In this document: piece by piece, positions 39,891-63,098 of the stretch
How the letters are laid out: every line of letters begins with the position of its first letter
Numbering within the stretch: the first letter of the stretch is position 1
DNA from: Candidatus Desulfovibrio intestinipullorum
Lineage (GTDB): Bacteria; Desulfobacterota; Desulfovibrionia; Desulfovibrionales; Desulfovibrionaceae
Direction of reading: 5' to 3'
DNA: 64,000 nucleotides
Assembly (NCBI GenBank): GCA_019113165.1
Contig: DXHV01000055.1
Coordinates: forward strand, 30,009-94,008
Notes under the pieces: model-generated
Databases searched by the model: none
What the model saw: the letters and a program-made list of their open reading frames with translations, nothing else
What the model was told of the DNA's origin: nothing
Position numbers and translations under genes: made by a program

Positions 39891-39919
39891 TTGACATGTC
39901 AGAAAAATGTTGCTAGATC
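39891..39919 (+). promoter_or_regulatory. sigma70-like promoter TTGACA-N17-(TGc)TAGATC with A/T-rich UP-like tract, pointing at the dotD block
   Basis: Read directly: ttgaca 39891-39896, 17-nt spacer, tagatc 39914-39919, preceded by aaaaaaaatttttcgattccagaaaatttttt. About 480 nt upstream of ATG 40400. Confidence 0.4.
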
Positions 39920-47119: not shown

Positions 47120-48819
47120 TGGCCCGTTTCCTTGCCCAAGGCCCTGTTTCGGCCCCTGCTTTGGCCCCTGTTCCGGCCCGGATGGTTGCCCTGCTGCGCA
47201 CCCTGCTCTCGATCACAGGCTCCCTCTTCCTTCTGGCCCTGACAGTCCTCACCGCAGGCCTTGCCCTCCTGCTCGCAGGCTGTGCCTCCCAGGACGTTGC
47301 TGCGCCGTCGCCGGAGCTTGTGAAGGCCCAGCGCGACAGCTTCCACAGGCACACCAGACCCCACACCTTCAGCGAGAGTCCCGAGCCCTATCTGAAAGGA
47401 CGCCTGGTGGGCCTGCGCACGGACCCGAAGGATCATCCCCTGCTGCGTACCAGGGTGACGTTAACGCAGCGCGGCAGCCTGCAGGAGGTGGCCGCCTCCC
47501 TGGCACGCCTGGCCCCGGTCACGGCGCTGGTGACCAGCGAGGACAGTGACAGCCTTCCTGCCCTCTCTTCCCTGCCACGGCCCATGAGTCCCAGCGCGGG
47601 TGCACAGATTCCGGGACTGGAAGACCTTGTGCCGGCCCATCTGGATCTCGATTTCGGCCTCGCCTCGGGCAGCATCCTTGATGTGAACTACGCAGGGACC
47701 CTGCGCGGCCTTCTGGACACCATTGCCGGGCTTTCCGGCTACGGCTGGGACTTTGACGCCAGGACCAGGCGCATCACCTTCTCCCGCCTGCAGGTGCGCA
47801 CCTTTGTGCTGGCTGCCTCGGTCGGGACAGTTGCCTGGGACAGCCAGGTCTCCAACCGCAGCCGCGAGCAGCAGGGCAATGCCCTCTCCGGCGACAACAT
47901 CAATTCCACGGTCACAAGCGGCGACACCACCAGCCAGACCGCCCAGATCAATACGACCAAAGCGACCCTGGACGTCTGGAAGGATGTGGAGACCACGGTC
48001 AAGGGCCTGCTCTCCAGGGCAGGGACCGTGAGCATCAACCAGAGTGCCGGCACCCTCACCGTGCGCGACACCCACAGCCGTCTGGAAGCCATTGCCCGCT
48101 ACATCGAGGAGATGAACGCCCGTCTGGAGCGCCAGGTGGCCCTGTGCGTGCGCGTCTGGGCCCTGGAGGTGAGCGATGCCTCGCGCCTCGGCCTCAACCT
48201 GCAGACCCTCTTCACCTCGCCCGACGTGGCCGTCGAGGCAGGCACAGCCTCCCAGGCAACAGGCAGCCTTGCTGCCGTGAGCGTTCTCAAGGGCAGGCTC
48301 ACCGGATCCTCGGCCACCCTGGAAGCCCTGAAGGAGTGGGGCAATGCCACCCAGCTCACTTCGGCCTCAGGCCTTGTCATGAACAACCAGCCCTTTCCGG
48401 TGCAGGCCGTGCGCCGCCATGCCTATCTGGCCGGCATGACCATGAGCACCTCGGAGTACAGCCAGACCTCGGAAATCACGCCAGGCGAAGTGACGACCGG
48501 CTTTGCCATGACCCTCATTCCCCACATCCTGCCGGACCGCCATGTGCTCCTGCAGTACAACATCACCCTCTCCTCCCTGGAGGACATGACCACCATAGAG
48601 CGGGACAGCATTGCCGTGCAGCTCCCCCAGGTGTCCACCAGGGCCTTTTCCCAGCGCACCCGCCTCAAGGCAGGCCAGACCCTTGTGCTGGCCGGCTTCG
48701 AGCAGGACACGGCCTCGGCCACCAGGGATCTTGGGCTCCTCTCCGGCCTGCGCGACCACGATGCGAGCAAGACCCTGCTTGTCATCAGCATTGAGCTGGA
48801 GGGCGCAGACAATGTGTGA
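47119..48819 (+). CDS. pilN: PilN-family secretin lipoprotein of type IVb (R64-type) pilus
   Basis: TAATG overlap with pilL. Lipobox LLLAGC/A. Secretin N and C domains (TLTVRDTHSRLEAIARYIEEMN, VRVWALEVS, QTLVLAGFEQD..LLVISIEL). Confidence 0.8.
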   Translation: MARFLAQGPVSAPALAPVPARMVALLRTLLSITGSLFLLALTVLTAGLALLLAGCASQDVAAPSPELVKAQRDSFHRHTRPHTFSESPEPYLKGRLVGLRTDPKDHPLLRTRVTLTQRGSLQEVAASLARLAPVTALVTSEDSDSLPALSSLPRPMSPSAGAQIPGLEDLVPAHLDLDFGLASGSILDVNYAGTLRGLLDTIAGLSGYGWDFDARTRRITFSRLQVRTFVLAASVGTVAWDSQVSNRSREQQGNALSGDNINSTVTSGDTTSQTAQINTTKATLDVWKDVETTVKGLLSRAGTVSINQSAGTLTVRDTHSRLEAIARYIEEMNARLERQVALCVRVWALEVSDASRLGLNLQTLFTSPDVAVEAGTASQATGSLAAVSVLKGRLTGSSATLEALKEWGNATQLTSASGLVMNNQPFPVQAVRRHAYLAGMTMSTSEYSQTSEITPGEVTTGFAMTLIPHILPDRHVLLQYNITLSSLEDMTTIERDSIAVQLPQVSTRAFSQRTRLKAGQTLVLAGFEQDTASATRDLGLLSGLRDHDASKTLLVISIELEGADNV

Positions 48820-50407
48820 GCCCCTTTCCCGCGAACGCGATGCTGACCACGAGACCGAATACGAGACCAGGTCCTCCTTGTACGCCGCTCCCGGCACAAA
48901 GGGGCACGAGGGAAAGGGGCACGAGGGAAGGCAGCCGGCAGGGCCTGAAGAGAGCAGGCTGTCGCCGGAAGAACGCCAGCAGGAAGAGCGTTCCCGGAGA
49001 GTGCTTTCCCGGGAAGCGCTTTCCCGGGAAGCACCTGCGCAGGCACAGATCCCCCGGGCACGACGTGTTCCGGCACGGCAGCCCCTGGCCCGCGTGCGTG
49101 TGCAGGGCCGGGATCTGCTCCTCCATCTTGTCTGGCAGGCCGGCACGGACGAGGACGGGGATCTGGACGCGCTTCTTGACGAGACAGGAACGGGCGCAGG
49201 CGCAGGCCGTGCCGCCCAGGCGGCCAGGGCCCGGGCGTCCGGCATTCCCTGCAACCGTCTGGTCTCAAGCCGCGGCCGCTTTGGCATGCTCCATCTCTCG
49301 GCCCTGCCGTCAAGGCCCCTGCGGCCCCTTTCCCTGGCAGCTTTGCTTGCCAGAGTGCAGCCCACAGGCCTGGCCGTTCTCGCCCTGCGCGATGCGGATA
49401 CGAGGTGCCTGCATTACTGGGTCTGGGCTGCCCGCCGCGGCTGCCTGTCGGCCAGGGCGGACCGCTCCTTTGCCTCGCAGGACGAGGCTCTGGCCTTTGC
49501 CTCGTCGCTGCAAGAGAGCCTGGGCCTGGACGAGGCTCTGGTCTGCAGCGAGCAGGAGTCCCTGGCCCTTGTGGCAGACATGCTTGATTCGGCCGACAGG
49601 GAGGTGCTGCGATCCTGCCAGCCTGTGCCCCTGGAGCCCCTCTCCCTCTCCCGCATTCTGGCAATGGGCACAGGGCTTGTGCTGGCCCTTGGCCTGCTCC
49701 TTGGCGGGTCGACCCTCTGGGAGTGGTGGCAGAACAGGGAAGCCTTTCACCTGCGCTCCCAGAGCCGCTCTGAGCTGGTGCGCCAGAAGCGGGAAGTGCT
49801 GGCCCACCCGGAACAGCACTTTGTGGCAGCCTGGGCAAAGGCTCCGGCTGCCGCCGATCTGGTCAGAGGGGTGCTGCCGGCCATGCTCGACTTTCCCATG
49901 GCCGGCAACGGCTGGGCCCTGGTGGAGCTGACGGGCCGGCACACGAGCTCCGGCGCCCAGTCTGGAGCTCTGTTGGACGCCCGCTGGCACGCCCTGCCCC
50001 AGGCCTCCCTGCTCCATCCGCCGGCAGGAGCTGTTCTGGAGCGAAAGAACCCGGAATACGCGCAGCAGAGCCTGCCCCTCTCCGTGCCCCTCCCCCTCAA
50101 TGCCACACCACTTTCCCGTCTTCCGGACCGGGACGAGCTGCAGCAGCAGCTCTCCGAGCTCAGCCGCCGCTTTGGCCTGCGCCTCAGGCTGGCCTTCAAA
50201 AAGGTGGAGACCCTGACCATTGGCGAGGAGACCATTGCCGCCCCCTGGATCAACGGCACACTGACCCTCGACCATCTGGCGGACTACATGGTGAGCGACT
50301 GGCCGGCCCTGGCCAGCGCCCTGGACCTGCCGGGCGTGAGCCTCACCGCCATTGCCTGGGACGGCCGCAGCTGGACGTGCACAGGCCAGGTTTCGGTCCG
50401 GCGCTGA
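48812..50407 (+). CDS. PilO-like (R64 PilO) pilus biogenesis protein
   Basis: ATG 48812 overlaps the pilN stop. One TM (ILAMGTGLVLALGLLLGGSTLW). The call rests mainly on the N-O-P-Q-R-S synteny and overall architecture. Confidence 0.5.
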   Translation: MCEPLSRERDADHETEYETRSSLYAAPGTKGHEGKGHEGRQPAGPEESRLSPEERQQEERSRRVLSREALSREAPAQAQIPRARRVPARQPLARVRVQGRDLLLHLVWQAGTDEDGDLDALLDETGTGAGAGRAAQAARARASGIPCNRLVSSRGRFGMLHLSALPSRPLRPLSLAALLARVQPTGLAVLALRDADTRCLHYWVWAARRGCLSARADRSFASQDEALAFASSLQESLGLDEALVCSEQESLALVADMLDSADREVLRSCQPVPLEPLSLSRILAMGTGLVLALGLLLGGSTLWEWWQNREAFHLRSQSRSELVRQKREVLAHPEQHFVAAWAKAPAAADLVRGVLPAMLDFPMAGNGWALVELTGRHTSSGAQSGALLDARWHALPQASLLHPPAGAVLERKNPEYAQQSLPLSVPLPLNATPLSRLPDRDELQQQLSELSRRFGLRLRLAFKKVETLTIGEETIAAPWINGTLTLDHLADYMVSDWPALASALDLPGVSLTAIAWDGRSWTCTGQVSVRR

Positions 50408-50498
50408 CAGAACAAGACAGACCTTGCCACCCAGTGGCACACAAAGCGCACAGCACAAAACAAAACAGCAAACAGGACACAAAGCAGGAGTCAGGCCC

Positions 50499-51575
50499 AT
50501 GATACGCAACAGGACAGACCAGAGCGACGAAACGAGGACAAGCCTTTTTGTACCACCCGCATCCGGTACGGCAGCCGATCCTGTGACCAGCAGGGCACAG
50601 GAATGGGCAGACGATACAGCAGCCGGGACGGCAGAGGACACGGTACAGGACAGGGCAGCGGAGGCGGTGACCCGTCCCGTTCAGGACCAGATGCAGGACC
50701 AGCATCAGGAACAGGACCTGCTGCCCAGGGAGCACACAGTGGCTGCCCCTGAACCCGGCAGCCGCAGGGGAAAGGTCCTTGTCCTTGCCACCCTCTCCTG
50801 CCTCATGCTGGCCCTGGCCGGCGGCCTGTACTGGTTCTGGCAGTTTCCCCAGGAATTTGCCCTGCTGGCCGACCGGAAGGGCAACGAAACACAGGCCAGG
50901 CTCAGACCGGTGAGTCCGTCTGCAAACCAGCCCGAAAACAGGGCCGGACACAAGACCGGCACGCAGGCCGCCACACAGGCAGCCATCCCTGGCGGGCAGG
51001 CCGAACCGGCAGAACCGGCACGATCGGCAGGGCCGGCGCAGCAGGACGAAGTGAAGCAGGCACACGCCCCTGCGCCGGATGACGCCGGATCGGACGAGCC
51101 GGCAGCCTCCGTCCAGCTGCCGGCCCTGGCTGGCTTTGCGCCGGGCAGCGTCTATTCCGGTACCCTGGGCGAGATGACGCGCCTGCAGGCCGGATCGCAG
51201 ATGGCCAGGGCCGACCTGGCCCTCAAGGAAGTGCAGGTGCGCCTGCACGAGCTGGAAGCCCGCCTGCAGCCCGAGCCCCTGAAGGAGACCAGGGCGCAGC
51301 AGAGCGAGCTTGCGACCATGCAGCAGAGCCTGCAAAAGTCCATGGACCGCATCCTGACAGCCCTCACGGCCCGCAGCGAAGAAAAGGCGGACGATATTGC
51401 CGGTTCACTGGCCGTTGTGGCCGTGCGCAGCCAGGGCGGCCATCTGGAAGCCGAGCTCAAGGGCACTCCCGGCACCTTCTGGGTGCGCGAGGGCGAGACC
51501 GTGCAGGGCCTCAGGGTGGATGAGATCTCGCGGCAGCGCGTGCGCCTCAACGGACAGACCCTGCCCTGGCGCTAG
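50499..51575 (+). CDS. PilP-like pilus biogenesis protein with long low-complexity region
   Basis: SD AGCAGGAG before ATG 50499. TM (VLVLATLSCLMLALAGGLYWFW). C-terminal beta domain LAVVAVRSQGGHLEAELKGTPGTFWVREGETVQGLRVDEISRQRVRLNGQTLPW is typical of PilP. Confidence 0.5.
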   Translation: MIRNRTDQSDETRTSLFVPPASGTAADPVTSRAQEWADDTAAGTAEDTVQDRAAEAVTRPVQDQMQDQHQEQDLLPREHTVAAPEPGSRRGKVLVLATLSCLMLALAGGLYWFWQFPQEFALLADRKGNETQARLRPVSPSANQPENRAGHKTGTQAATQAAIPGGQAEPAEPARSAGPAQQDEVKQAHAPAPDDAGSDEPAASVQLPALAGFAPGSVYSGTLGEMTRLQAGSQMARADLALKEVQVRLHELEARLQPEPLKETRAQQSELATMQQSLQKSMDRILTALTARSEEKADDIAGSLAVVAVRSQGGHLEAELKGTPGTFWVREGETVQGLRVDEISRQRVRLNGQTLPWR

Positions 51576-51652
51576 CCCCTTGTCTCCAAAGCAAAAGACC
51601 GCAAAACCAAAAACGAGCAGCAGGACCAAAAACAAGCAGCAGGGAGGATCGC

Positions 51653-53605
51653 ATGTTCCTCAGAAGCATTGTCACACGACTCGGGGCGCACCCTTGTGGC
51701 GCACACCGCGCCAGAGGCAGAGAACCGGAACGAACAGCCGGACAGGGCGCAGGCCGGGCCTGGCCCGGGAATACGGGATACACCGGGACCATCGGGGACA
51801 GAGGGGAGACCAGACCCGCCAGCGGCGCAGAAAGCGGCGCACAAGCCCGGGCAGAAGTCCGTGCACAAGCCAGGGCAGACGCCCAGGAAGAAGCCGGCGC
51901 CCGCGGGAACCAGAACGCCGACAAGGCTGACGACTGGCAGCCGGATCTGCCGGCCAGCATTGCCGACAGGGTGCGCTTCAGGGATGGGGGCTTTCACCTC
52001 TCGGCCGAACTCAGGGGCAACATGGAGCTCGATCTTGTGCTGGCCCAGGCCTCGGAGCACCTGCAGGTCACAAAGCTTCCCCTGCACTGGTACTCGCCAG
52101 GCCGCTTTGAGCAGATCTTCGGCCTGCGCCTCTCGGGCGATGCCCTCTCCGCCAGCCAGCGCCTGCAGCTGCGCACCCTGGAAGTCTCGGGCACCTGGGT
52201 GGACGAGTACGTGAAGAGCCTCTTCAAGCGGGCCATGGCCAAAAAGGTCTCGGACATCCACATTACCTACATGGGGCCCTATGCCCAGGTGTCCTTCCGG
52301 CGCATGGGCCTCATGATGGAGGAAGAATGCCTGGACGGCGCCCAGGGTTTGCAGCTCATCCGCGGCATCTTCCAGGGCCAGCTCTCCCAGGCAGAGTCCG
52401 GCTTTTCCGAATACGAGCGCTACGACGGCCGCATTGCCGACCGCAACTATCTGCCCGAAGGCCTCTTTGCGGTGCGCCTGCACACCGAGCCCATACAGAG
52501 TCCCCTCATTGCCGGCCCTGGCGTAAACCTGGCCATGCGTCTGCTCTTTGATGCCACCAGGGCCAGGGGATCCGTTACCGAGCGCCTCGCCTCCCTGGGC
52601 TTTACCGGGGAGCAGCAGGCCCTCATCGAGAGCTTTGCCGAAACGTCCGGCATGACTGTTATTTCCGGGCCGACAGGCCACGGCAAGACCACGGTGCTCA
52701 AGAACATTCTGGAGGCCCTGGCCCAGGACGTGCCCACCAGGAACTACTACAGTCTGGAAGACCCGCCGGAATACACCATCCTGGGCGTGAAGCAGCTCAA
52801 TGTCTTTACCAAGGCCGTCTCCGACGCCGAGCGCAAGCGCGCCCTGCTGGAAGCCCTGGCAGGCCTCATGCGCTCGGACCCGGACGTCATCCTCCTTGGC
52901 GAAATCCGCTACCTGGAAACGGCCAATGCCGCCGTCAATGCGGCCCTCACCGGCCACAGCGTGTGGACCACGGTCCATGCGAGCTCCGGCCTCAATGTCA
53001 TTGCCCGCTTCCACGAAATGGGCGTCCCCCTGGCCTCCCTTTGTGCCCAGGGTGTGCTCACGGGTCTCACCTATCAGCGCCTCATGCCCATGCTCTGTCC
53101 GCACTGCAAGGAGCACCTTGTGGATGTTCTCGAGCACCCGGGCCACAGGGACCGCTTCCCGCACAAGCTTGTGCACAGGCTGCAGCGTCTCTATCCGGAC
53201 GAGGCGCTTGAGCGGATCTGCGTGCGCGGCAAGGGCTGCCCCCACTGCGACGGCATGGGCCTCTCCGGCCAGCAGGTGGCTGCCGAAGTCATCCCCCTGC
53301 GCGATGCCAGGCTCATGCAGCTCATCCGCAGCAACCATCTGCAGGCCGCCCAGGCATACTGGATACGCGAGATGCAGGGCATGACCCATCTGGCCCATGC
53401 ACGACTGCGGGTGGGCCTGGGCGAGGTGGACCCGCGCCTGGCCGAGGAACGCCTGGGCACCACTCTTGATGCCGATCTCGAGGAACTGGCGTCATGGGAA
53501 AATGCCGGAAATCCTTCCAGGGACCAGGACCGGGCCCTGGCCGAAAACCGGGACGGCGCGCAGGGTGACACCCGCTCCGGACAAGAGGGAGGACGCTCAG
53601 CATGA
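51653..53605 (+). CDS. pilQ: PilQ (R64 nomenclature) GspE/PilB-family pilus assembly ATPase
   Basis: SD AGGGAGGA before ATG 51653. VSDIHI, Walker A ISGPTGHGKTTVL, LEDPPEY, RSDPDVILLGEIR, and tetracysteine CPHC..CPHC. Confidence 0.85.
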   Translation: MFLRSIVTRLGAHPCGAHRARGREPERTAGQGAGRAWPGNTGYTGTIGDRGETRPASGAESGAQARAEVRAQARADAQEEAGARGNQNADKADDWQPDLPASIADRVRFRDGGFHLSAELRGNMELDLVLAQASEHLQVTKLPLHWYSPGRFEQIFGLRLSGDALSASQRLQLRTLEVSGTWVDEYVKSLFKRAMAKKVSDIHITYMGPYAQVSFRRMGLMMEEECLDGAQGLQLIRGIFQGQLSQAESGFSEYERYDGRIADRNYLPEGLFAVRLHTEPIQSPLIAGPGVNLAMRLLFDATRARGSVTERLASLGFTGEQQALIESFAETSGMTVISGPTGHGKTTVLKNILEALAQDVPTRNYYSLEDPPEYTILGVKQLNVFTKAVSDAERKRALLEALAGLMRSDPDVILLGEIRYLETANAAVNAALTGHSVWTTVHASSGLNVIARFHEMGVPLASLCAQGVLTGLTYQRLMPMLCPHCKEHLVDVLEHPGHRDRFPHKLVHRLQRLYPDEALERICVRGKGCPHCDGMGLSGQQVAAEVIPLRDARLMQLIRSNHLQAAQAYWIREMQGMTHLAHARLRVGLGEVDPRLAEERLGTTLDADLEELASWENAGNPSRDQDRALAENRDGAQGDTRSGQEGGRSA

Positions 53606-54834
53606 GGACCTTTCCTTCTTTCAGGCCAGGCCTGACTTGTGCCCGGCAAGCTGGCCGACAGTCTGGCCGACAATCCGGCTTTTTCGGGCAGTCCGGAAAA
53701 TCCACGGCAGACAGGTCCGGCAGGGGAGCAGCACGCACCATGACAGGGCACCCTGTGCTCAGGACCCTGGCCAGGCTCTCCTTCACGGCCAGGCAGCGCT
53801 GCCAGTGCTGGGAGCAGGTGGGCGAGCAGATGAAGGCCACCCATCTGCCGCTGGAGTACTGCTTCAAGACGCTCACGAAGCAGGCCCGCGAGGACAGGGA
53901 TGTGCTGGCCCTGGTCTATGCGGACATCACGGCCCGCCTCAACGAGGGGCACAGCATAGGCCGGGCCATAGCCCCCTATGCGGGCCCTGAGGAAGTCATG
54001 CTCATCGATGCCGGCCAGACGGCCGGCGAGGCCGCCCTGTCCCAGGGCTTTCTCAAGGCCGCCCTGCTCATGCACAAGCGCCGCGAAATCCGCGACCTCA
54101 TTGTGCGCCAGCTGGCCTACCCCTGCGTGCTCTTTCTGGCCCTGGGCTGCTTTCTTGTGCTCATTGCCACGGTCATCGTGCCCATGCTCGCTTCCCTCTC
54201 CAATCCTGCCACCTGGCAGGGCGCAGGGGCCCTCCTCTACCATCTGGCCACCCTGGTCACCTCCTGGCAGGGCCTGGCCCTGGCGCTGACAGGCCTTGTC
54301 CTCCTGCTGGCAGCACTCTGTTCCCTGCCCCACTGGACAGGCCGGCTGCGCGAGATCTGCGACAGCGTGCCGCCCTGGTCCCTCTACCGTCTGCTCACCG
54401 GGGTTTCCTGGCTCTATGCCACGGCCACCCTCCTGCAGACCAGGGGCATGAAGCTTGGCATCATTTTGCGGCGCCTGCTCAAAGCCCCGGAGACCAGCCG
54501 CTACCTGCGCTGGCGCCTTGTGCCCGTCTGCCTGGCCGACAATCAGGGCTACACCCTGGGCGAGGCCCTGTGGCGCAGCCGCGGCCACTGGCCGGATCGC
54601 TCTCTTGCCAGGGAGCTGCGGGCCTATGCCGCCCTGCCCACCTTCAATACCCTGCTCCCCTCCCTGACCGACAAGCTGCTGAAGGACACCATGCGCCGGG
54701 TGGAACGCTCCACAAAGATCATCAATGCCGCAAGCCTTGCGGCCATCATTGGCCTTTTGCTGCTCTTTGTGGCCGGCATCTTCAGCATACAGGAACAGCT
54801 GATGCGCACGGTGGGCGCCGTGGGCGGCCTGTAG
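53602..54834 (+). CDS. pilR: PilR (R64 nomenclature) GspF-family inner-membrane platform protein
   Basis: ATGA overlap with the pilQ stop. 410 aa. Two GspF-like repeats with 3-4 TM segments (e.g. YPCVLFLALGCFLVLIATVIVPML, LAAIIGLLLLFVAGIFSI). Confidence 0.75.
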   Translation: MRTFPSFRPGLTCARQAGRQSGRQSGFFGQSGKSTADRSGRGAARTMTGHPVLRTLARLSFTARQRCQCWEQVGEQMKATHLPLEYCFKTLTKQAREDRDVLALVYADITARLNEGHSIGRAIAPYAGPEEVMLIDAGQTAGEAALSQGFLKAALLMHKRREIRDLIVRQLAYPCVLFLALGCFLVLIATVIVPMLASLSNPATWQGAGALLYHLATLVTSWQGLALALTGLVLLLAALCSLPHWTGRLREICDSVPPWSLYRLLTGVSWLYATATLLQTRGMKLGIILRRLLKAPETSRYLRWRLVPVCLADNQGYTLGEALWRSRGHWPDRSLARELRAYAALPTFNTLLPSLTDKLLKDTMRRVERSTKIINAASLAAIIGLLLLFVAGIFSIQEQLMRTVGAVGGL

Positions 54835-55022
54835 CAGCCAGAGGGAAAGAGACCAGCCGATCCAGCCAATCCAGCCAAATCAAATCAGACCAGGAGAAAA
54901 TGTCCAGATCAGGCAGGGGATGAACAACACGAAGGAAGCGATCCTGCGCCTGACCCGTACCGGGCTTTTCTCCCAAACAATACCCCCGAAAAACCAAAAA
55001 AACCATAACCAAAGGAGTCTCC

Positions 55023-56780
55023 ATGGCAGAAATGATCAAGGAAGCCACGGACGTCGCGGACGTCACGACATCCGCAGGCACCGCAAGCCACGCCGAACGC
55101 GCCGCAACCGCCAGGAAGCAGGCCACAAAGGCCCGCCGCAAGGGAACGACCACTGGCGGACGCAAGGCCCGCGTCAGGGCCCACCGCCGCAGCCTGCGCA
55201 GCGACCGCAAGGGCACTGTCACGCCTGAGCAGATCACGGCTGCACAGGTCGCGGCCACAGGGGCTGCTCTCGACCAGGTCATGCCCGCAAAGAAGCAGGC
55301 CGCAACGACTGCAAACGAGAAGGACGCTTGCGCAGCGGCTGCGGACGCACAGGCTGCGCCTGAGAAGGAAACGAACGGACAGGCCACGGCCCAGGGATCC
55401 GCTGAAGTCGCTGAAGTCGCTGAACCGGCCGAACCCGGCGAATCCACTGGAAGCGCAGGCTCTGCAGCATCCGCAGAGTCTGCCGATTCCGGGCCTCGCG
55501 CAGAGGCTGCAGAAGAGGCCAGGGCAGCTGACGACACGAAGGCAGCCCGCGCAGCGAAGGAAGCCGGCACGATCGACGAAACCGGCGCAACGAAGGAAAC
55601 CCGCGAAGCCCACGAACTCCGCGAGACGGAAGAAACGGGCGGAGCCGGAGCAGCCAGGGCGACCGGCAAGGCCGGCGCAACGGAAGAACGCCGCGAGACC
55701 GGCGCAAGCGCAGAAAGCGCAGAAACCGGCGCGGCCGGAGCCCCGCACGAGTCCGGAGAACCGGGCTCGACCGCAGCACCCGGCAGCGCCACAGCCACAG
55801 GGAAGGAACGTATGGCACACGCAACGACTGATCACGTCACCACTGACAACGCAATGAAGGAAGCGATTACGAAGGAAGAGGCCGCAACCGCAGCTGCTCT
55901 CCTGAGCACGGATGCCGCACAGCCCGCAGGCGCCAGAGCTGAAGCTGTTCAGGCCACGGCTGCTACGGAAGCCCAGGCTGCCACGGACGCCCAGGCACAG
56001 GCCGCAAGGGAGCCTGAAGCAGGGGCGCCTGATGCAAGGGATGTTGACGCAAAGGGCGCAGACGGAAAGGCAGCGGGCGGTTTCCTGACCGGCCTGCAGG
56101 GCCTGTTCCGCACCCTGGGCCGCGTCCGTGTCCGTGGCCGTGCCGGTACCCGCTGCCGCTGCCAGGCCTCTGGCGGCAAGGGCGACGCCCATGCGGGCTG
56201 CGGACAGCAGGACTGCGCCTGCAGCCGTGCCGCAAAGGCAGGCAAGACCGCACAGGACGGCCGCGACGCCGGCTTCACCCTCATCGAGGTGATGGGCGCC
56301 CTGGTGGTGGGCTCCCTGGTCTTCAGCTTTGCCGCCTTTGGCATCAGCAGCGCCCTTGAGTCCGCCCGTGTCTCCGGCTTCAACGAGAGCCTGGCCCTGC
56401 TGCGCATGAACATCCAGGAAGTGTACGCCAGCTCCCGCGGCTTCGGATCCACGAGCAGCTCGCCCACGGACATCACCAGCACCCTCGTCAACGCAGGCGC
56501 AGTGCCCCAGAACTGGCTCACCTCGGACACGGAATCCGACAGCACCACCATCACCCACAACTTTGGCGGCACCGTCTCCGTCGAGGGCACGGTGAGCAAC
56601 TTCGAGATCACTGTCACCGGCATCCCCCAGTCCGCCTGCCGCAAGATCGTGAGCGCGCAGTTCGAGAACTGGGACGAAGTGGCCATCGGCGGCACGACCG
56701 TGACCTCTGTCCCACCCACCAGCTGCCTGCCCGACAACGGCAACCTGGGCGTCAACAGCCTGCTCTTCACGGCCCACTAG
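55023..56780 (+). CDS. pilS: type IVb prepilin (PilS-like) with an extraordinarily long low-complexity N-terminal region
   Basis: Strong SD AAAGGAG (55010-55016) before ATG 55023. The last ~168 aa are pilin: GRDAG/FTLIEVMGALVVGSLVFSFAAFGISSALE plus a C-terminal Cys pair. About 417 aa precede the G/F site. Confidence 0.7.
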   Translation: MAEMIKEATDVADVTTSAGTASHAERAATARKQATKARRKGTTTGGRKARVRAHRRSLRSDRKGTVTPEQITAAQVAATGAALDQVMPAKKQAATTANEKDACAAAADAQAAPEKETNGQATAQGSAEVAEVAEPAEPGESTGSAGSAASAESADSGPRAEAAEEARAADDTKAARAAKEAGTIDETGATKETREAHELRETEETGGAGAARATGKAGATEERRETGASAESAETGAAGAPHESGEPGSTAAPGSATATGKERMAHATTDHVTTDNAMKEAITKEEAATAAALLSTDAAQPAGARAEAVQATAATEAQAATDAQAQAAREPEAGAPDARDVDAKGADGKAAGGFLTGLQGLFRTLGRVRVRGRAGTRCRCQASGGKGDAHAGCGQQDCACSRAAKAGKTAQDGRDAGFTLIEVMGALVVGSLVFSFAAFGISSALESARVSGFNESLALLRMNIQEVYASSRGFGSTSSSPTDITSTLVNAGAVPQNWLTSDTESDSTTITHNFGGTVSVEGTVSNFEITVTGIPQSACRKIVSAQFENWDEVAIGGTTVTSVPPTSCLPDNGNLGVNSLLFTAH

Positions 56781-57077
56781 CCGATCCCTTTTCGACAAAG
56801 GTGTCTTTCGGGATCCCTGCCTGACCTGAGGCAGGGCCCCCTCAAATCCCTCCTGCAAAGCCATGTCCCCGGGCTGTTCCTGCACGCGGACCCGGCAGAT
56901 GCCCGACCTCTTGCCTGCCGGAAAGGACACTCTGAACACCCCGGGGGTCCCACAGCCCTGCCCCGGACGGCGGGGGCAGGGCTGCACAACAAGAGAACAC
57001 ACGCAGAACACAAGAACAGCCAAACAGCAACGCGGACCCAATCATGCCCAAACACACGCACAACGAGGTTGCCGTTC

Positions 57078-57581
57078 ATGTACCCCCTGGCCCTCTGTCT
57101 GACCCTGGTCTCCCTGCTGGCACTCTCGAGTCTGGTCCTGCCTGGCTCTCTCGCGGACAGGGCCCAGATCCATCGTGCCCGCTGCGAGGCAGTGGCCGAC
57201 AACTTTCTCCTCTTTTGCAGTGCGGCCCGGCTCGCCCTGGACAAACAGGCCGCCGCACACGCAACCGGTTCCCCGGACCATTCCGCCGACCTCTCCCCTG
57301 CTGCTTCACTGACCCTGGCTCAGGTGGAGCAGCATCTGCCGCCTGGCTACGTGGCCCTGGGGTCCTGGCAGATAGCGAGCAGCGAAGACAGGGTCTGTGT
57401 CTACGGCCCCCCTGCCGCAGGCAGCCGCCACGAACTGCTGGCCTTCCATGTGCGCCGCAAACTCGACAATGCCCGCACTGCCGGTCAGTGCCGATCCAGT
57501 CACCTGCATCCCGCAGGCATTGCCCTGCCGGATGCCATCCCCGAAGGAAGTGTGGTATGCGTCCTTGCTCCCCGCCAATGA
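57078..57581 (+). CDS. PilM-like (R64/ICE-type) small pilus biogenesis protein
   Basis: ATG 57078 (GAGG 10 nt upstream). N-terminal TM MYPLALCLTLVSLLALSSLVL, then ..RARCEAVADNFLLFCSAARLAL..LPPGYVALGSWQI, resembling plasmid PilM. Confidence 0.5.
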   Translation: MYPLALCLTLVSLLALSSLVLPGSLADRAQIHRARCEAVADNFLLFCSAARLALDKQAAAHATGSPDHSADLSPAASLTLAQVEQHLPPGYVALGSWQIASSEDRVCVYGPPAAGSRHELLAFHVRRKLDNARTAGQCRSSHLHPAGIALPDAIPEGSVVCVLAPRQ

Positions 57582-58948
57582 ACACCATGTCCCGCGCAGT
57601 TCTCCGGACGGACCCTCTCGGGACCGTCCCGAAAACACCTGATGGAACGCCCGGCCCTGCCGCAGCGGATGCCGGCTTTACCCTCATCGAGGTCCTGGGC
57701 GCCCTGACCGTGGCAAGTCTTGTCCTGGTGCTGGTCATGACCCTGTGGAAGCGCGGGGCCGAGTGGCAGGAACAGGCGCAGGTGGCCTGGCATCTGCAGG
57801 CGGTCACGGCCGCTGCCACGGACTATGTCGCGAGGCATTACGACAGTCTGGCCGAAGAGGCCGGTCCGAGAGACGGTCCTGCCATCACCCTGCAGACCCT
57901 GATCAGTGAAGGCCTTCTGCCCGACGGCTTTCAGGAACACAATCCCTGGAATCAGAGCTATGCACTGACCGTGCGCAGCCTGGGAGACAGCCGTGAAGAA
58001 GGAGAAGAGGAAGGTAGCGAAGACACCGACACAGCCGGCCGCCTCCTGCTCCTGGTGCTCACCCAGGGCGGCCGCGGCACAAGCCATGATACCGGGGATG
58101 CGCACTTTCTCTCCGTCCTTGTGCCCGGCGCGGCCCGCAGGGCCGGCAGCAGCGCGGGCTTCATTCCCCATGCCCACCCGGACGGCTACGGCGAAGGCCA
58201 GCTTGTGGCAGGTCAGGGCGGCTATGTGCTCACCCTGGCCGACCTCGGGATTACCTCCCCTGGAGCCGGTCACCTTGGCAGCTACACAGTCCTTGGCGCA
58301 GGCTCCACGTCTTCCTCTTCGGACGTGCTCCACCGTGTGCCCGTAGACGGCCAGCCCGAGCTCAACCAGATGGAAGTGGACCTGGACATGACAGGCTGCG
58401 GGATCACCAATATCGGCTCCCTGCACCTCACCTCCTGGCCCCGGGATGGCGAAGAAGCCGACAAGAGGCCCCTGGACACCCTTGGCCCCGGCTCCGGCTG
58501 CGATCCTGAGGACGTGGGCAAGCTCTTTCTGGACGAGACCTACGGCCTCTACCTCTGCCGCATGATGGAGGGCTCGAACGGAACAAGGACTCCGGGCCTG
58601 GCCCTTATCAGCGATTCCGGCAACAACCTCTCCGTTCAGCACATGACCCTGGCAAGCGATCAGGACCTTGTCCCCAAGCCCGTCTGTGCCAGCGGCACGG
58701 GCATGGAGCCGCAGATCTTCGTGGCGCCCAGCATTGCCTCCTCCGGTCCCAGCAGTCCGTCCATGGTGGCCTGGCGCGCCTGGGCCAGCGAGGCGAATGC
58801 CACAACCTGGCGCGTGCACCTGGAGGTCAAGAACACCAGCCACTCGGCCAACGGCTGGTACGTCCCGTCCGTGGAAGGCGACGATCTGGCCCCCTATTAC
58901 GGATCCGTGCAGGTCATCACGGCCTGCGTGCGCAAGAGGGCCCGGTGA
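57578..58948 (+). CDS. pilV: PilV-like minor prepilin/adhesin
   Basis: ATGA overlap with the previous gene. 33-aa leader then AADAG/FTLIEVLGALTVASLVLVLVMTLW. 456 aa, the size class of R64 PilV. Confidence 0.65.
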   Translation: MNTMSRAVLRTDPLGTVPKTPDGTPGPAAADAGFTLIEVLGALTVASLVLVLVMTLWKRGAEWQEQAQVAWHLQAVTAAATDYVARHYDSLAEEAGPRDGPAITLQTLISEGLLPDGFQEHNPWNQSYALTVRSLGDSREEGEEEGSEDTDTAGRLLLLVLTQGGRGTSHDTGDAHFLSVLVPGAARRAGSSAGFIPHAHPDGYGEGQLVAGQGGYVLTLADLGITSPGAGHLGSYTVLGAGSTSSSSDVLHRVPVDGQPELNQMEVDLDMTGCGITNIGSLHLTSWPRDGEEADKRPLDTLGPGSGCDPEDVGKLFLDETYGLYLCRMMEGSNGTRTPGLALISDSGNNLSVQHMTLASDQDLVPKPVCASGTGMEPQIFVAPSIASSGPSSPSMVAWRAWASEANATTWRVHLEVKNTSHSANGWYVPSVEGDDLAPYYGSVQVITACVRKRAR

Positions 58949-59826
58949 TGACGCGCCCGGACAACGTCACGCGCAAGAGCGCCTGCCCTGAAAGCGGCAC
59001 AACCGGTTCCTGCCGGCAGGGTCAGCAGGCTGGTTCCTTGTGCCGGGAGCGCAGGGTTGTGTCCGTGCTGCCTGGTCTGCCTGGTCTGCCTGGTCTGCCC
59101 GGACTGCCTGGTCTGCCCGTGCTTCCCGTACTGGCCGTGCTGACTCTGGCCCTTGTGCTGACCCTGGCCCTTCCCGTGCGGCAGGCACAGGCCGATGTCT
59201 TCACAGGCCCCTGCAGGCTCTTTGGGGTGCCGCCCCTGCTTGCCATGGCCATGGCCCGGGTGGAATCGGACTGGTATCCCTGGTGCCTCAACATTGAAGG
59301 GAAGGATGTGCGGCCAAAATCCTTTGCCAGGGCCGTGCAGCTTGCCGAACAGGCCCTGCGTGCCGGCAAGTCCGTGGACGTGGGCCTCATGCAGATCAAC
59401 AGCTACTGGCTCAGGAAACTGCACATTGCCCCCGAGGTCGCCCTTCAGCCCCGCAACAACGTGATCCTCGGCCTCTATGTCCTGACGCAGGAAGTGCGCA
59501 GGCATGGCGCCACCTGGAAGGCCGTGGGCGCCTACCACTCGCCCACAGTGTGGCGCCAGCAGCGCTATGCCCGCAAGGTGCACACCTGCCTTGCGGCCCT
59601 GCAGCGGGCTCTGCAAACTGCACAGGCCGGGCAGGCGCAAGCCCAGGTTCAGGGAAAGGACAAAAGGACTGCCAGGGACAGGCTGAAGGACGCCCCCGTG
59701 TCCCTGTCCCGTCTCCTGCCGGGACTCTCCGAAGACAGCACAGGGGACAGGCCCGAACGCAAGACTGAAGGCAGGACTGGCAGCAGGCTTCAGCGCAGCC
59801 AGGGGAGTCAGGGGAGTTTCAGATGA
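58948..59826 (+). CDS. lytic transglycosylase (SLT domain), PilT in R64 nomenclature
   Basis: AMARVESDWYPW..VDVGLMQINSYW..YHSP are the SLT catalytic motifs. The N-terminal anchor contains the LPG repeat. GTG 58945 or ATG 58948 overlaps the pilV stop. Confidence 0.8.
   Translation: MTRPDNVTRKSACPESGTTGSCRQGQQAGSLCRERRVVSVLPGLPGLPGLPGLPGLPVLPVLAVLTLALVLTLALPVRQAQADVFTGPCRLFGVPPLLAMAMARVESDWYPWCLNIEGKDVRPKSFARAVQLAEQALRAGKSVDVGLMQINSYWLRKLHIAPEVALQPRNNVILGLYVLTQEVRRHGATWKAVGAYHSPTVWRQQRYARKVHTCLAALQRALQTAQAGQAQAQVQGKDKRTARDRLKDAPVSLSRLLPGLSEDSTGDRPERKTEGRTGSRLQRSQGSQGSFR
59068..59130 (+). repeat. 9-bp tandem repeat (ctgcctggt x3 perfect plus 4 degenerate units) encoding (LPG)n in the transglycosylase signal anchor
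   Basis: Read directly. Units start at 59068, 59077, 59086, 59095, 59104, 59113 and 59122. Confidence 0.9.
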
Positions 59827-60806
59827 GCGATGCCGCACAGCTTGTCTCCCTGTGGACCCTGTTTGCCACGGCGCCGGAATTGCTTTTCCTGCGCCTGGGG
59901 GCTGCCTTTGTCCTTGGCAGCATTCTGGCTTCCTTTGTGACCCTGTGCGCCGAGCGCCATGCCCAGGGGCACAGCTTTGTGCGGCCTGGATCGCACTGCA
60001 GCCACTGCCACCATCCCCTCACCATTCTGCAGCTTGTGCCCGTGGCAGGCTGGCTCCTTCAGGGTGGGCGCTGCGCCTTCTGCAAGACCCCCATCCCCTG
60101 GCGCTATCCTGTCCTTGAGGCAGGCCTCGGGCTCGTCTTTCTGGCGCTCTGCAGCCGATGGGGCTGGACGCCTGCCTTTCTTGTCCATGTGCCCGTGCTC
60201 TGCCTGCTGCTCTGGCTGGCCCTCACGGACTGGCTGACCCTGCGCCTGCCGGACAAAATAACCTTTCTCGCCCTTGGCTGTGTGCTGGCTGGCAAGACGC
60301 TGCTCGTGCTGACAGGTCCAGAATCCCTTTCCCTGGCAGGGCTTCTGAAGGCATGGGCCTTCTGGCTTGGCACAGGTGCTCTGGCAGCCCTCTTTCTCCT
60401 TGTCATGGGCCGTGTCCTGAGCCGTCGCGCAGGCCGCGAGGCCTTAGGCCTTGGCGATGTGAAGCTTGGCCTTGTCCTTGGCACCCTGCTGGAAGAGGAC
60501 GTGTTTGTCAGCCTGGCCCTGGCCTCTGTCCTTGCCCTTTTGGCCGCCCGGCTGGGTCTGCCTGGCTGGGCCGGACAAAGAAAGGCGTCTGAACAGGCAG
60601 AACAAGCCGAACAGGCCGGGGCACCCGAAGAGACAAGGATCCCTGACCAGGCCGAAGCATCCGCACAGACAAAGGCGTCGGGCCAGACCAGAGCATCCGA
60701 TCAGCCCCAGGCATCCGGTCAGCCCCAAACCACCGTCGTGGCCTTTGGCCCCTGCCTTGTCCTGGGCGCCCTGTGCACCCTCGCCGCCCGGGCCCTCATG
60801 CCCTGA
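59823..60806 (+). CDS. A24-family prepilin peptidase (PilU in R64 nomenclature)
   Basis: ATGA overlap with the previous stop. N-terminal CxxC..CxxC (CSHCHHPL..RCAFCKTPI). Catalytic Asp contexts LTDWLTLRLPD and GLGDVKLGLVLG. A Gln/Ala/Ser-rich insertion lies near the C-terminus. Confidence 0.85.
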   Translation: MSDAAQLVSLWTLFATAPELLFLRLGAAFVLGSILASFVTLCAERHAQGHSFVRPGSHCSHCHHPLTILQLVPVAGWLLQGGRCAFCKTPIPWRYPVLEAGLGLVFLALCSRWGWTPAFLVHVPVLCLLLWLALTDWLTLRLPDKITFLALGCVLAGKTLLVLTGPESLSLAGLLKAWAFWLGTGALAALFLLVMGRVLSRRAGREALGLGDVKLGLVLGTLLEEDVFVSLALASVLALLAARLGLPGWAGQRKASEQAEQAEQAGAPEETRIPDQAEASAQTKASGQTRASDQPQASGQPQTTVVAFGPCLVLGALCTLAARALMP

Positions 60807-60838
60807 CTGCCCCTGTCATCCTTCAAGGAGGTCCAACC

Positions 60839-61603
60839 ATGTTGCGCGCATTTCCTGCTGCAGACAGACCCGTCTGCTCTCGTTCAGGCACGTCCCGCAA
60901 GAGACGGGGATACGGCCGGATCCCTGCTCCCCTGAATCTGGTCCTGGCCCTGCTTCTGCCGGGTCTTGTCCCGGGTCTTGTGCTGAGTCTTGTCCTGGCG
61001 GCGGGCTGGCCAGCCCCGGCCCTGGCCCTGGATGCCACCTTTGACCCCACGTCTGCGGTCATTGTGCCGCAGTCGTCCTCCGGCGTGCCCATCGGCACCA
61101 TCATCGCCTGGCCCGTGAGTCAGGATCCGTCCGATGCCGCCGCCTGGCTGGACTGCGACGGCCGCACCATACAGGCCACGGACTATCCGGGTCTGGTGGC
61201 CGTGCTCTCGGGCTCGGCCACGGCCACCAGAGTGCGACTGCCCGACTTGCGCGGCCTTTTTCTGCGCGGCCACGGTTCCCGTACCCATCTGCAGAACAAT
61301 GGCGAAAACGTGGGCGTCACGGCCACCACCCATCAGAGCGGCCAGCTTGGCCAGGTGCAGGGCGATGCCATCCGCAACATCTATGGCACCCTGACCTGCG
61401 GGGAACGGATACCGGGCGGCGAGTGGATCAACGACTCCCTCACCGGCGCCTTCGGCTGGTACGGTCCCTCCAATGCCGACGGTCTTGGCCAGTCGGACGG
61501 CGACAATGTGCACTCCTTCTTCAGTGCCTCCAGGGTGGTGCCCACGGGCCCGGAAAACCGTCCCGTGAACATGGCCGTGCGCTACCTCATCCGCGCTCTT
61601 TAG
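60839..61603 (+). CDS. phage tail-collar (tail-fibre-like) domain protein with N-terminal membrane anchor/signal
   Basis: SD AAGGAGG before ATG 60839. GTIIAWPVS..WLDCDGRTIQATDYPGLVAVL..RLPDLRGLFLRGHG matches the collar domain. The C-terminus is ENRPVNMAVRYLIRA. Confidence 0.7.
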   Translation: MLRAFPAADRPVCSRSGTSRKRRGYGRIPAPLNLVLALLLPGLVPGLVLSLVLAAGWPAPALALDATFDPTSAVIVPQSSSGVPIGTIIAWPVSQDPSDAAAWLDCDGRTIQATDYPGLVAVLSGSATATRVRLPDLRGLFLRGHGSRTHLQNNGENVGVTATTHQSGQLGQVQGDAIRNIYGTLTCGERIPGGEWINDSLTGAFGWYGPSNADGLGQSDGDNVHSFFSASRVVPTGPENRPVNMAVRYLIRAL

Positions 61604-61612
61604 GATGTGCCC

Positions 61613-62965
61613 ATGGCTCGTTCCAAAACTTCGGAGGCCCCGCCGAGCGGCGCAGGGCCCCTGCTCATCTGCACAGGGATCTGTCTCGCCCTTGCCCTGG
61701 CCTCGGCACGCTTCGGGCCGGATCTGGCACGCCTGCTGCTGGATCTGGCCCGTCTGCTTCTTGTCCCCCTGGCTTATGCAAGCGATCACTATGCGGCTGT
61801 TCTCGCCCGTCTTGCTTCGGCTCCTTCCTGGCAGCAGCCCGAGCCCGGCCAGGCCCTGGCCCTGCTGCAGGCCGTCTGCCGTCCCTATGTCTTCTGTGTC
61901 GGCCTGCCCCTGTCCTTCCTCTATATTGCCCTTGGCTGGCGGACCTCGGTGGCCGATGTCTACCGCCGGACCCTGACCATGAAGGGGCTGCTGGCCACGC
62001 AAAAGCCCTTTTCCGCCTGCATTGCGCCCATCCTGAACTGGCCGGTGAGCCTGCTTGAGGAGCCCCTGGACCGCGGCCCCTGGCGGGCCGGCAGACAGCC
62101 CGTGCAGCTGGCCGTGGACCACGGTCTGCTGCTTTCTCCGGCACAGGGAGGGGGCAGGCCCGTGGCACGGGAGGACATTGTCGGTCCGGACAACCTGGCC
62201 CGGGCGGACTCGCCCTGGCTTGGCCGCACGCACAAGGGCCTTGCCCTGGACCGGGAAAGGGCACGAAGGCTCTTTGCCGCCCAGCTTGGGCCCAGGTGGG
62301 CCGGCTGGCACAAGCTCCCCCCGGAACTGGCCAAGCTCTCCTGTGCCTGGATGCTCTTTGCCAGCGACCACAAGAACGAGGCTCAGGCCCTGCTGGACGA
62401 GCTCTCCCTGTCCTTCAGGGCTCCCGAAAAGGCCCGCAAGGCTCGCTGGCAGTGGACTCCGCCCTTTCGCATCCCGGCACAAAAGGGGCACCCCTACCTG
62501 CTGGACACGCATCTGAACGCAGCCACCCGGGCACTCTGCGAGCAGGCCCTGAACAGTCCCCTTGTGCAGAAGGCCCTGCGGCCGCACAGCACCTGGCGCA
62601 ACCTGGCCCTGCTGGCGCTCTACGAGGCCGCACGCAGCAAGGGGGTGCTGCCCACGGCCGAGTTTATCTGGCTCAGGCCGGTGCACAGGGAACTCTTCTA
62701 TTTGTGCAACAATGTGGGCCGCCGCACGGCCTGGCCGGAAATTGCCGGAGCCCTGGCCCACTATCAGGCCGAAGAGGTCCTGGGCCACATGGATGCGGCA
62801 AGCCGGGGCATTGTCGAGCCCCAGGTGGAAGAGGCCGTGACCTCCCTGGAAGTGGCGCTTTACGAGGAAGGCTGGATCTCGCCTGATGCCCTGTCCGAGC
62901 AGGTGGCAGGCAAGAGCAGGAATCTGGGGCTGGACGATCCCGAAAGCGCCCGCAGGGAGGTATGA
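61613..62965 (+). CDS. IcmP/DotM (TrbA-like) T4BSS coupling-complex membrane protein
   Basis: Two N-terminal TMs. YRRTLTMKGLLATQKPFSACIAPILNWPVSLLEEPLDRGPWRAGRQPVQLAVDHGLL resembles the conserved DotM region. The start is ATG 61613 or GTG 61607. Confidence 0.55.
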   Translation: MARSKTSEAPPSGAGPLLICTGICLALALASARFGPDLARLLLDLARLLLVPLAYASDHYAAVLARLASAPSWQQPEPGQALALLQAVCRPYVFCVGLPLSFLYIALGWRTSVADVYRRTLTMKGLLATQKPFSACIAPILNWPVSLLEEPLDRGPWRAGRQPVQLAVDHGLLLSPAQGGGRPVAREDIVGPDNLARADSPWLGRTHKGLALDRERARRLFAAQLGPRWAGWHKLPPELAKLSCAWMLFASDHKNEAQALLDELSLSFRAPEKARKARWQWTPPFRIPAQKGHPYLLDTHLNAATRALCEQALNSPLVQKALRPHSTWRNLALLALYEAARSKGVLPTAEFIWLRPVHRELFYLCNNVGRRTAWPEIAGALAHYQAEEVLGHMDAASRGIVEPQVEEAVTSLEVALYEEGWISPDALSEQVAGKSRNLGLDDPESARREV

Positions 62966-62994: not shown

Positions 62995-63030
62995 CAAGGT
63001 ACATGGCACGTTGCTGTGTACCTTGTTTCG
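62995..63030 (+). terminator. possible terminator after the dotM-like gene
   Basis: caaggtaca-N11-tgtaccttg followed by tttcgtt. GC content drops from this point. Confidence 0.4.
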
Positions 63031-63098
63031 TTATCAGCTGTTGGCAACACAGGGGCTTTCCTGATAAGGAACAGCAAACAGTCATGAAGGAGCGCGCC

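Follow-up and report, generated by a model that had tools for sequence, protein, structure and literature searches.

A pilS gene of a Desulfovibrio conjugative element that appears to encode a prepilin with a 417-residue leader

How far from the start of a prepilin can the signal for its peptidase lie? The question is raised by pilS, a pilin gene in a conjugative element of Candidatus Desulfovibrio intestinipullorum that we analyzed within a 64,000-nt stretch of contig DXHV01000055.1 (the window, to which all positions refer; L numbers denote related loci and P numbers protein-search hits or clusters). Type IV pilin leaders are 6-26 aa long overall, ~15-30 aa in type IVb (T4b) pilins and up to 18 aa in type IVa (T4a) pilins (PMC4471445, PMC10191384), and we found no description of a bacterial prepilin with a leader of at least 100 residues in the open-access literature. 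The original prediction placed the processing site of this T4b prepilin about 417 codons from the start of its gene, and explained the distance either by a giant pro-region or by initiation at an unconventional internal codon. In-frame extensions in homologues, codon usage, a homologous ribosome-binding site and the lack of any near start all speak for the pro-region. We put at about 0.62 the probability that a 585-aa prepilin is made from ATG 55023, with a 417-aa, mostly disordered leader that is cleaved by the peptidase PilU and contains a few functional islands. Such a disposable leader appears to exceed by more than tenfold the length of any on record for this class of protein, and related elements appear to share it. 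The parts of the gene are:

55023-56780, + strand: pilS open reading frame (ORF), 585 aa (417-codon leader plus mature pilin)
55023..56273, + strand: coding sequence of the leader (pro-region), 417 codons, hydrophilic, low-complexity and T-poor
56271..56276, + strand: predicted prepilin-peptidase cleavage site G417/F418, from the PF07963/TIGR02532 match and conserved residues
56274..56780, + strand: mature PilS pilin, 168 aa plus stop, PF08805

The last ~168 residues were recognizable as a type IVb pilin with a C-terminal Cys pair, as had been claimed. There were matches to PF08805 (PilS) at aa 462-563 (44.5 bits, gathering cut-off 22, E = 2e-11), to PF07963 (N_methyl) at aa 414-437 (24.8 bits, cut-off 21.2), and to TIGR02532 at aa 416-438 (20.0 bits, cut-off 16.3). 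The sequence around the site, DGRDAG417/F418TLIEVMGALVV, has the layout of a class III signal peptide as in IPR012902, with Gly at -1, Phe at +1 and Glu at +5 followed by ~20 hydrophobic residues. Residues G417, F418, T419, L420 and E422 were invariant in an alignment of 10 homologues (alignment A1), as was the Cys pair C539/C568, for which a disulfide is predicted. The only transmembrane-like segment of the precursor is the alpha1N helix at aa 418-445 (Kyte-Doolittle peak 2.2); the maximum anywhere in the leader was 0.91. The leader is thus as hydrophilic as expected for a type IV pilin, and departs from the family in being far longer than 6-30 aa and in placing the signal away from the extreme N-terminus. 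In every respect that can be tested the mature protein and its operon agree with the PilS family, and leader length is the sole exception. The ratio of nonsynonymous to synonymous substitution rates (dN/dS) in the mature pilin was 0.03 (L006/L007) and 0.11 (window/L001), with substitutions nearly all at third positions; GC content at third positions (GC3) was ~0.9. This strong purifying selection indicates that the mature pilin is expressed and translated.

Where could translation of this pilin begin? There are two candidate starts with recognizable Shine-Dalgarno sequences:

55011..55017, + strand: Shine-Dalgarno AAAGGAG, 5 nt before ATG 55023, with an A/C-rich tract 5' of it; found in the sequence and conserved in relatives
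55812..55814, + strand: in-frame ATG inside the gene (codon 264), 4 nt after an AAGGA Shine-Dalgarno; candidate alternative start giving a 154-aa leader

The combination of AAAGGAG and ATG 55023 opening a 585-codon ORF was found as described. An in-frame codon scan also bore out the claim that no start occurs in the ~139 codons before the Gly/Phe site and that the nearest ATG is codon 278: ATG, GTG or TTG occurs in frame before G417 only at codons 1, 4, 87, 264 and 278, so that the leader is at least 140 aa long from any of these codons. A scan for near-cognate starts found no CTG, ATT, ATC or ATA with a Shine-Dalgarno sequence within 52 codons before the site, and the last 52 codons before G417 contain no ATG, GTG, TTG, CTG or ATH codon at all. 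Because the pilin is expressed and there is no start in the 139 codons before the site, translation must begin far upstream. The pilR stop codon and the pilS ATG are separated by a 188-nt intergenic spacer that contains a hairpin with a T-run, the A/C-rich tract and the strong Shine-Dalgarno sequence. Within it, CAAGGAGTCT[C/T]CATG is conserved in L001 and L005, and the flanks in L001 have diverged. Similar AAGGAG-type ribosome-binding sites and A/C-rich 5' untranslated regions precede the far-upstream ATGs of L009, L011, L012 and L013. Homologous starts are found across lineages also at the protein level: MSIDIEKR begins both P0010 (202-aa leader) and P0012 (70 aa); MR[KT]VW begins P0004 (348 aa) and P0005 (250 aa); MQVLK begins L012 (73 aa), L013 (182 aa) and P0016 (172 aa); and MHALK begins P0015 (99 aa). 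That the N-termini are alike despite unequal leader lengths indicates that leaders lengthened from within, the start and the cleavage site staying fixed.

GC content is 63% in the window; in the extension, T makes up just 7.9% and the AT skew is 0.57. Open frames are cheap in such T-poor sequence, and stop codons were therefore compared with a composition-keeping mononucleotide shuffle of each lineage's extension. There were no stops in the pilin frame of the extension and 4 and 12 in the other forward frames; shuffles of the window sequence averaged 7.25 stops, and P(0 stops) was 0.0002. In six lineages the pilin frame is stop-free over the whole pilR-pilS spacer, with P(0 stops) of 0.003 for L001, 0.008 for L006, 0.0002 for L008, 0.017 for L010 and 0.003 for L013. 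With 4-7 stops expected per lineage, the joint probability of none in the six is < 1e-10. The other forward frames have mostly 2-12 stops per lineage, the exception being frame +2 of L010/L004, with none.

Codon usage and the pattern of change point to the same frame. The first codon position in the pilin frame is G in 0.56 and T in 0.04 of codons. Using log-odds scores trained on confident genes of the window and applied to 300-nt slices in six frames, we found that frame 0 scored +0.25 bits/codon, was positive in all seven slices (+0.10 to +0.36), and was the top forward frame in every slice. The other five frames were mostly zero or negative; one reverse frame reached +0.30 in the last slice (55923-56222), which is the usual antisense mirror of a GC-rich gene. 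As a control, the same scores rejected an artefactual ORF upstream of pilV and picked the pilM frame there. The tandem-repeat periods in the leader (9, 18, 27, 15 and 6) are all multiples of three, and the indels between relatives are all in frame (the window and L005 differ by 4 gap runs, L006 and L007 by 9, and A1 contains many more). The same ORF was present in independent assemblies from different samples (P0001, P0158 and L005). Five independent lines show that selection maintains the pilin frame and that the long in-frame region is more than a by-product of high GC. A gene in another frame or strand was considered and rejected, given the stops in frames +1 and +2 and the mostly zero or negative scores of five of the six frames. 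A 710-aa antisense ORF over pilS is likewise a high-GC mirror artefact, which also covers the true pilin.

How widely is the extension shared? The original prediction had asked whether homologues keep the long in-frame region or carry a separate upstream gene. They keep it: at least ten related Desulfovibrionaceae lineages have uninterrupted in-frame leaders of 58-454 aa, and in L001, L003, L004, L005, L006 and L007 the long pilS ORF directly follows pilR with no gene between. All 10 hits of a word-indexed search had extensions, of 198-442 aa. When the mature pilin was used as the query of an exhaustive HMMER search over 1.84 billion representatives, the match was preceded by 58-417 aa in the 10 closest clusters, by 13 aa in an eleventh close cluster (P0017), and by at most ~48 aa in the other 139 listed hits. 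Three more distant loci, L015, L016 and L017, have ordinary leaders of 13, 17 and 12 aa with their own Shine-Dalgarno sequences, and their upstream frame closes within 35-58 codons. The presence of long leaders in the closest relatives and of 12-17 aa leaders in distant ones indicates a clade-specific innovation of Desulfovibrionaceae pilS. The related loci come from Desulfovibrio or Desulfovibrionaceae gut metagenome-assembled genomes and one human gut metagenome. A scan of metagenome contigs gave one further locus only (L022), and tblastn against 72,556 plasmid records gave no match.

Two of the relatives have a second start in one open frame. L011 (2211/2316) has a far ATG with a Shine-Dalgarno sequence (58-aa leader) and a proximal one (23 aa), and L013 (3455/3953) has the same arrangement with leaders of 182 and 16 aa. 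As read from their sequences, these genes may make two precursor isoforms, and may represent an intermediate evolutionary state.

What is in the leader? It had been described as basic at its start, then acidic and Ala/Glu/Thr/Gly-rich, and Cys-rich at its end, and this layout held: a basic block at aa 31-60 (net +13) is followed by an acidic Ala/Thr/Gly/Glu-rich tract and a second basic block at aa 361-390 (net +7), and the five Cys residues at C378-C400 are significantly clustered (permutation p = 0.0002). Three islands are conserved with L001:

55113..55202, + strand: N-terminal basic block, aa 31-60, ..GGRKARVRAHRR.., net charge +13
56076..56123, + strand: amphipathic motif GGFLTGLQGLFRTLGR, aa 352-367, 80% aa identity with L001
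56154..56222, + strand: Cys patch CRCQASGGKGDAHAGCGQQDCAC, with C378, C380, C393, C398 and C400

The basic island (aa 26-57) has 65% aa identity with L001, compared with 25-40% in its flanks. The amphipathic island, GGFLTGLQGxxRTLGR, stands in a region that is otherwise near saturation against L001, and the third conserved element, GCGQxDCAC (aa 392-400), lies in the Cys patch. Cys clusters were also found in L001, L006, L008 and L010 (p = 0.002-0.04), whose leaders are otherwise unalignable, and in P0005-P0009 the Cys positions are kept while neighboring residues vary. An island rich in Met, His, Asp and Thr recurs ~140-170 aa before the site (MAHATTDH/MAHATTDHVTTDNAM, TMDTMHMTHDMTDAHAHA, EEHEMHDTMD), at window positions 55800-55870 and in the leaders of P0004-P0010, where it overlaps the candidate internal starts, including codon 264. 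We take this island to resemble metal-binding Met/His motifs, and KKRGRPRKR near the site of L008 is presumably AT-hook-like. A Pfam search with six leaders gave nothing below E 0.01 and only noise at E ≤1, and a search of Protein Data Bank (PDB) sequences with the leader gave no match at E ≤1. An example of a tryptic peptide from leader aa 1-417 is GTVTPEQITAAQVAATGAALDQVMPAK.

The window and L005 differ in pilS mainly within the repeat tract of the leader (aa 125-215); over the 504 nt of the mature part they do not differ at all. A diversity-generating retroelement was rejected, as the substitutions are not A-specific (window/L005 and L006/L007), a template repeat or reverse transcriptase not having been searched for. 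A regulatory RNA in the region was also rejected, with no Rfam match at E ≤1.

Under the reading that we favor, the leader would stay in the cytoplasm because it has no hydrophobic segment, and the alpha1N helix (aa 418-445) would insert as an N-in/C-out anchor, an orientation that the net charge of +7 at aa 361-390 fits under the positive-inside rule. The A24 peptidase PilU, encoded nearby, would then cut after G417, and the 168-aa mature pilin would be assembled into a thin mating pilus. This topology, the cleavage by PilU, the fate of the leader and any function of its islands are inferred. The ancestral leader was probably longer than usual already, and in-frame expansion or slippage of repeats then extended it; the present leader would be constrained chiefly to stay open, hydrophilic, and basic beside the membrane. 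Short islands (the basic block, the amphipathic motif and the Cys(/His) patch) would be under selection; they may be binding sites for metal or for a partner protein, with a possible influence on processing.

Several points weigh against this reading. It rests on sequence for every member. Making a 417-aa leader for each 168-aa subunit is costly, and acceptance of such a substrate by an A24 peptidase is without known precedent, the known leaders being 6-30 aa. Leader dN/dS is 0.49-0.73 with substitutions spread evenly over codon positions, the value for the window/L005 pair being dominated by realigned repeats and not to be over-read; GC3 in the leader is 0.5-0.8 compared with 0.9 in the mature part. 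At dN/dS of 0.5-0.7, most of the leader sequence is not under amino-acid-level selection, and that it is mostly functionless is a real possibility, which limits the finding. An AlphaFold2 (AF2) model on the 10-sequence alignment had a mean predicted local distance difference test score (pLDDT) of 37.8 (~30 over aa 90-417) and no confident fold; it is consistent with a disordered leader, and is of low confidence throughout because the alignment is shallow, so that disorder is not proven by it. In-frame GTG codons occur 16-25 codons before the site in L003/L008, L004/L010 and L006/L007, with weak or no Shine-Dalgarno sequences. Finally, the internal ATG at codon 264, with its Shine-Dalgarno sequence, could be the main start.

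The full 417-aa length is accordingly uncertain. Translation could start chiefly at codon 264 (55812), leaving the first 263 codons to a minor isoform or occasional use; the leader would then be ~154 aa long, still unprecedented. The window and L005 (154-aa leader in each) and L001 (148 aa) all have an ATG with AAGGA at 4 nt at this place, M264 is an invariant column of A1, and other lineages have Shine-Dalgarno-like ATGs 138-167 codons before the site. We consider this start unlikely to be the main one, since the first 263 codons are stop-free where composition predicts ~4.6 stops, 55023-55322 scores as coding in frame 0 (+0.31 bits/codon), the 5' part holds a basic island conserved at the protein level, and the ribosome-binding site of ATG 55023 is conserved, is far stronger, and lies in a genuine intergenic spacer; Shine-Dalgarno-like strings are moreover frequent by chance in purine-rich sequence. 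It seems far less probable that the extension is an untranslated 5' leader, open only as a by-product of its composition, and that an unconventional start near G417 gives a short leader. The low T content and the skew do make stops rare, the extension evolves nearly neutrally, and spurious long ORFs are frequent at high GC, as the 710-aa antisense ORF and a 634-aa ORF upstream of pilV illustrate. Against this are the 4-7 stops still expected in composition-keeping shuffles with the joint P of the six lineages, the stops in most other frames, the in-frame indels, the match of codon periodicity and codon usage to frame 0, the N-termini kept within sub-lineages, and the 52 codons without ATG, GTG, TTG, CTG or ATH. 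No Rfam family matched either, and no sigma-70-like site was found in 54600-57100, a weak test as Desulfovibrio promoters may differ. Least probable of all is an assembly or sequencing artefact or a decaying pseudogene. Most relatives are metagenome-assembled, and repeat-rich, GC-rich DNA is error-prone, but at least 12 independent contigs, which differ in sample and assembler, show the same architecture, purifying selection on the mature domain is strong, and the pil operon is intact throughout.

Two further alternatives accept the long leader and differ on what it does. It could be pure neutral bloat: once the proximal start had been lost or shifted, slippage of repeats lengthened a part of the protein that is thrown away in any case, and the islands are functionless, which leaves the leader only the duties of keeping an open frame and obeying the positive-inside rule. 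The leader dN/dS of 0.5-0.7, the spread of lengths (58-454 aa, with close relatives P0010 and P0012 at 202 and 70 aa), the concentration of window/L005 differences in the repeat tract, and low-complexity Ala/Thr/Gln/Pro inserts in other proteins of the element all fit. This account is doubtful in view of the significant Cys clustering in five lineages with otherwise unalignable leaders, the 65-80% identity of the islands against a 25-40% background (window/L001), and the Cys residues kept among varying neighbors in P0005-P0009. At the other extreme, the leader could be a second gene product, freed by PilU in a stoichiometric amount with the pilin and acting in the cytoplasm through its basic, Cys/His and Met/His islands. 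Its possible roles include binding of metal, nucleic acid or the pilus motor, and coupling of processing to the control of transfer or assembly. By analogy, it would be a bacterial counterpart of the release of intracellular domains by GxGD-type aspartyl proteases. We regard this, too, as improbable. A leader with a few selected islands and little other constraint remains our preferred description.

How does this prepilin compare with known systems? The closest are the PilS proteins of the IncI1/IncI2 thin pili (R64, TP114), which have the same PF08805 domain, the same class III signal (Gly/Phe with Glu at +5) and the C-terminal Cys pair, and the same neighbors (pilQ, pilR, pilV, a lytic transglycosylase and pilU) next to an I-type (TraI, DotM) system. 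Their leaders are a few tens of aa, compared with 417 aa here; in addition, pilM lies between pilS and pilV here, and the host belongs to the Desulfovibrionaceae and not to the Enterobacteria. TcpA, BfpA, CofA, LngA and the long-leader T4a pilins of Streptococcus sanguinis likewise have a hydrophilic leader that ends in Gly and is cut at the cytoplasmic face by an A24 peptidase, as is predicted here. Theirs are the longest leaders described for bacterial pilins, and are far exceeded by the 417 (at least 140) aa of this one. Among pilin-type proteins, a long pre-sequence has its closest precedent in GspG of the mitochondrial type II secretion system (miT2SS) of Naegleria and other protists; in Naegleria, NgGspG1 has a ~160-aa N-terminal extension ahead of the conserved processing site, and proteomics found only peptides downstream (PMC8134430). 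It differs in being eukaryotic, in that its extension serves mitochondrial targeting, and in the absence of a GspO/A24 peptidase (PMC8134430); its extension is unrelated in sequence to the leader of this prepilin. Modular type IV pilins, such as PilB and PilC of S. sanguinis, carry added folded C-terminal domains that are displayed on the pilus (PMC8179133). They share with this precursor an extra polypeptide on a pilin scaffold, which here is N-terminal and apparently unfolded, and is predicted to be cytoplasmic and removed before assembly.

Outside the pilins, the anti-sigma factors RseA and RsiW and the substrates of signal peptide peptidases (SPP/SPPL) have a large cytoplasmic N-terminal part, one N-in helix and a membrane-embedded protease. 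The layout predicted for pilS would be analogous, and differs in that its cleavage would be constitutive maturation and not triggered by a signal. No anti-sigma or other effector domain was detected in the leaders in the Pfam and PDB searches or with AF2.

If the favored reading is true, A24 prepilin peptidases can handle substrates with very large cytoplasmic N-terminal parts, and class III signals can act at a distance of hundreds of residues from a protein's first codon. Pilin-finding tools can be expected to seek the signal near the N-terminus, and searches limited in that way could then miss such cases. The family would also be a natural system for asking what role, if any, a leader has, and an example of a segment selected only to stay open and hydrophilic while expanding from ~60 to over 400 residues. 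These conjugative systems belong to Desulfovibrionaceae of the human gut, in which the machinery of gene transfer has, to our knowledge, been little studied.

The pilS gene sits in an R64-like thin-pilus operon within an I-type conjugation module. The operon is of the pilL-pilV type beside an I-type, Dot/Icm-like system, and the same gene order was found in L001, L003 and L005. The neighboring genes are:

41350-42642: TraI
42702-44333: TraJ-like ATPase
45719-47119: PilL with a TcpQ domain
47119-48819: secretin PilN
between PilN and PilQ: ORFs in the PilO and PilP positions, with no Pfam match, named from gene order and from the PAP_PilO match of the L001 gene
51653..53605, + strand: pilQ-like assembly ATPase (PF00437 T2SSE, E = 2.7e-54), whose true start may lie downstream
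53602..54834, + strand: pilR-like platform protein (PF00482 T2SSF)
54948..54975, + strand: hairpin followed by a T-run in the pilR-pilS spacer, terminator- or attenuator-like, from a consensus scan and conserved in L005
57069..57581, + strand: pilM homologue with a TTG start, in a different frame from pilV (PF07419, E = 8e-7)
57578..58948, + strand: pilV minor pilin with a 33-aa leader from ATG 57578 (PF04917 Shufflon_N, PF07963)
between pilV and pilU: SLT transglycosylase
59823..60806, + strand: pilU-like A24 prepilin peptidase (PF06750, E = 4e-25, and PF01478), the presumed processing enzyme
after the tail-collar gene that follows pilU: DotM-like protein (DotM_C)

The A24 peptidase that had been placed at 59823 is thus confirmed by both of its domains, and its complete gene lies 3 kb downstream of pilS. 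PilV had been said to have a normal leader, and it does: 33 aa when read from ATG 57578, so that the long leader is specific to the major pilin. A 634-aa ORF at 57044-58948 (+ strand) is a high-GC artefact that merges pilM, which is in another frame, with pilV; separate PilM genes were called in L001 and L005. No shufflon was noticed in pilV, though none was searched for. Following pilU, a protein with a phage tail-collar domain (PF07484; 60773-61603, + strand) is encoded at the same place in L001, L003 and L005, and may be an adhesin or tip protein.

The pilR-pilS spacer also contains a 9-nt tandem repeat, CCAGCCAAT, in 2.9 copies (54853-54878), which is conserved in L005. Judging from the sequence, this repeat and the hairpin could form a terminator or attenuator that sets pilS transcript levels.

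Low-complexity sequence was also found elsewhere in the element. There are Ala/Thr/Gln/Glu/Pro tracts in PilL (45719-47119) and in the PilP-position ORF (50352-51575), a low-complexity tract at the N-terminus of the called PilQ ORF (51653-51980; AT skew is high at 50-52 kb), a low-complexity loop near the C-terminus of PilU (~60550-60720) and an (LPG)n run at the N-terminus of the SLT transglycosylase (59040-59110). The element in general seems prone to expanding its disordered segments through repeats.

A few further observations concern the element and its relatives. L005, which comes from a different sample, matches the window over 49018-62783 at 95-97% nucleotide identity. Two contigs with a Desulfovibrio-type pilS, those of L013 and L014, were assigned to bins of Bulleidia sp. 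and Odoribacter splanchnicus; misbinning of a mobile element is the probable cause, the alternative being cross-phylum transfer. No tRNA genes were found anywhere in the window. Patches of low GC (0.47-0.52) at 16001-17000, 38001-40000 and 63001-64000 stand out from the rest of the window (63-69% GC), and may represent either cargo of the element or the boundaries of its insertion.

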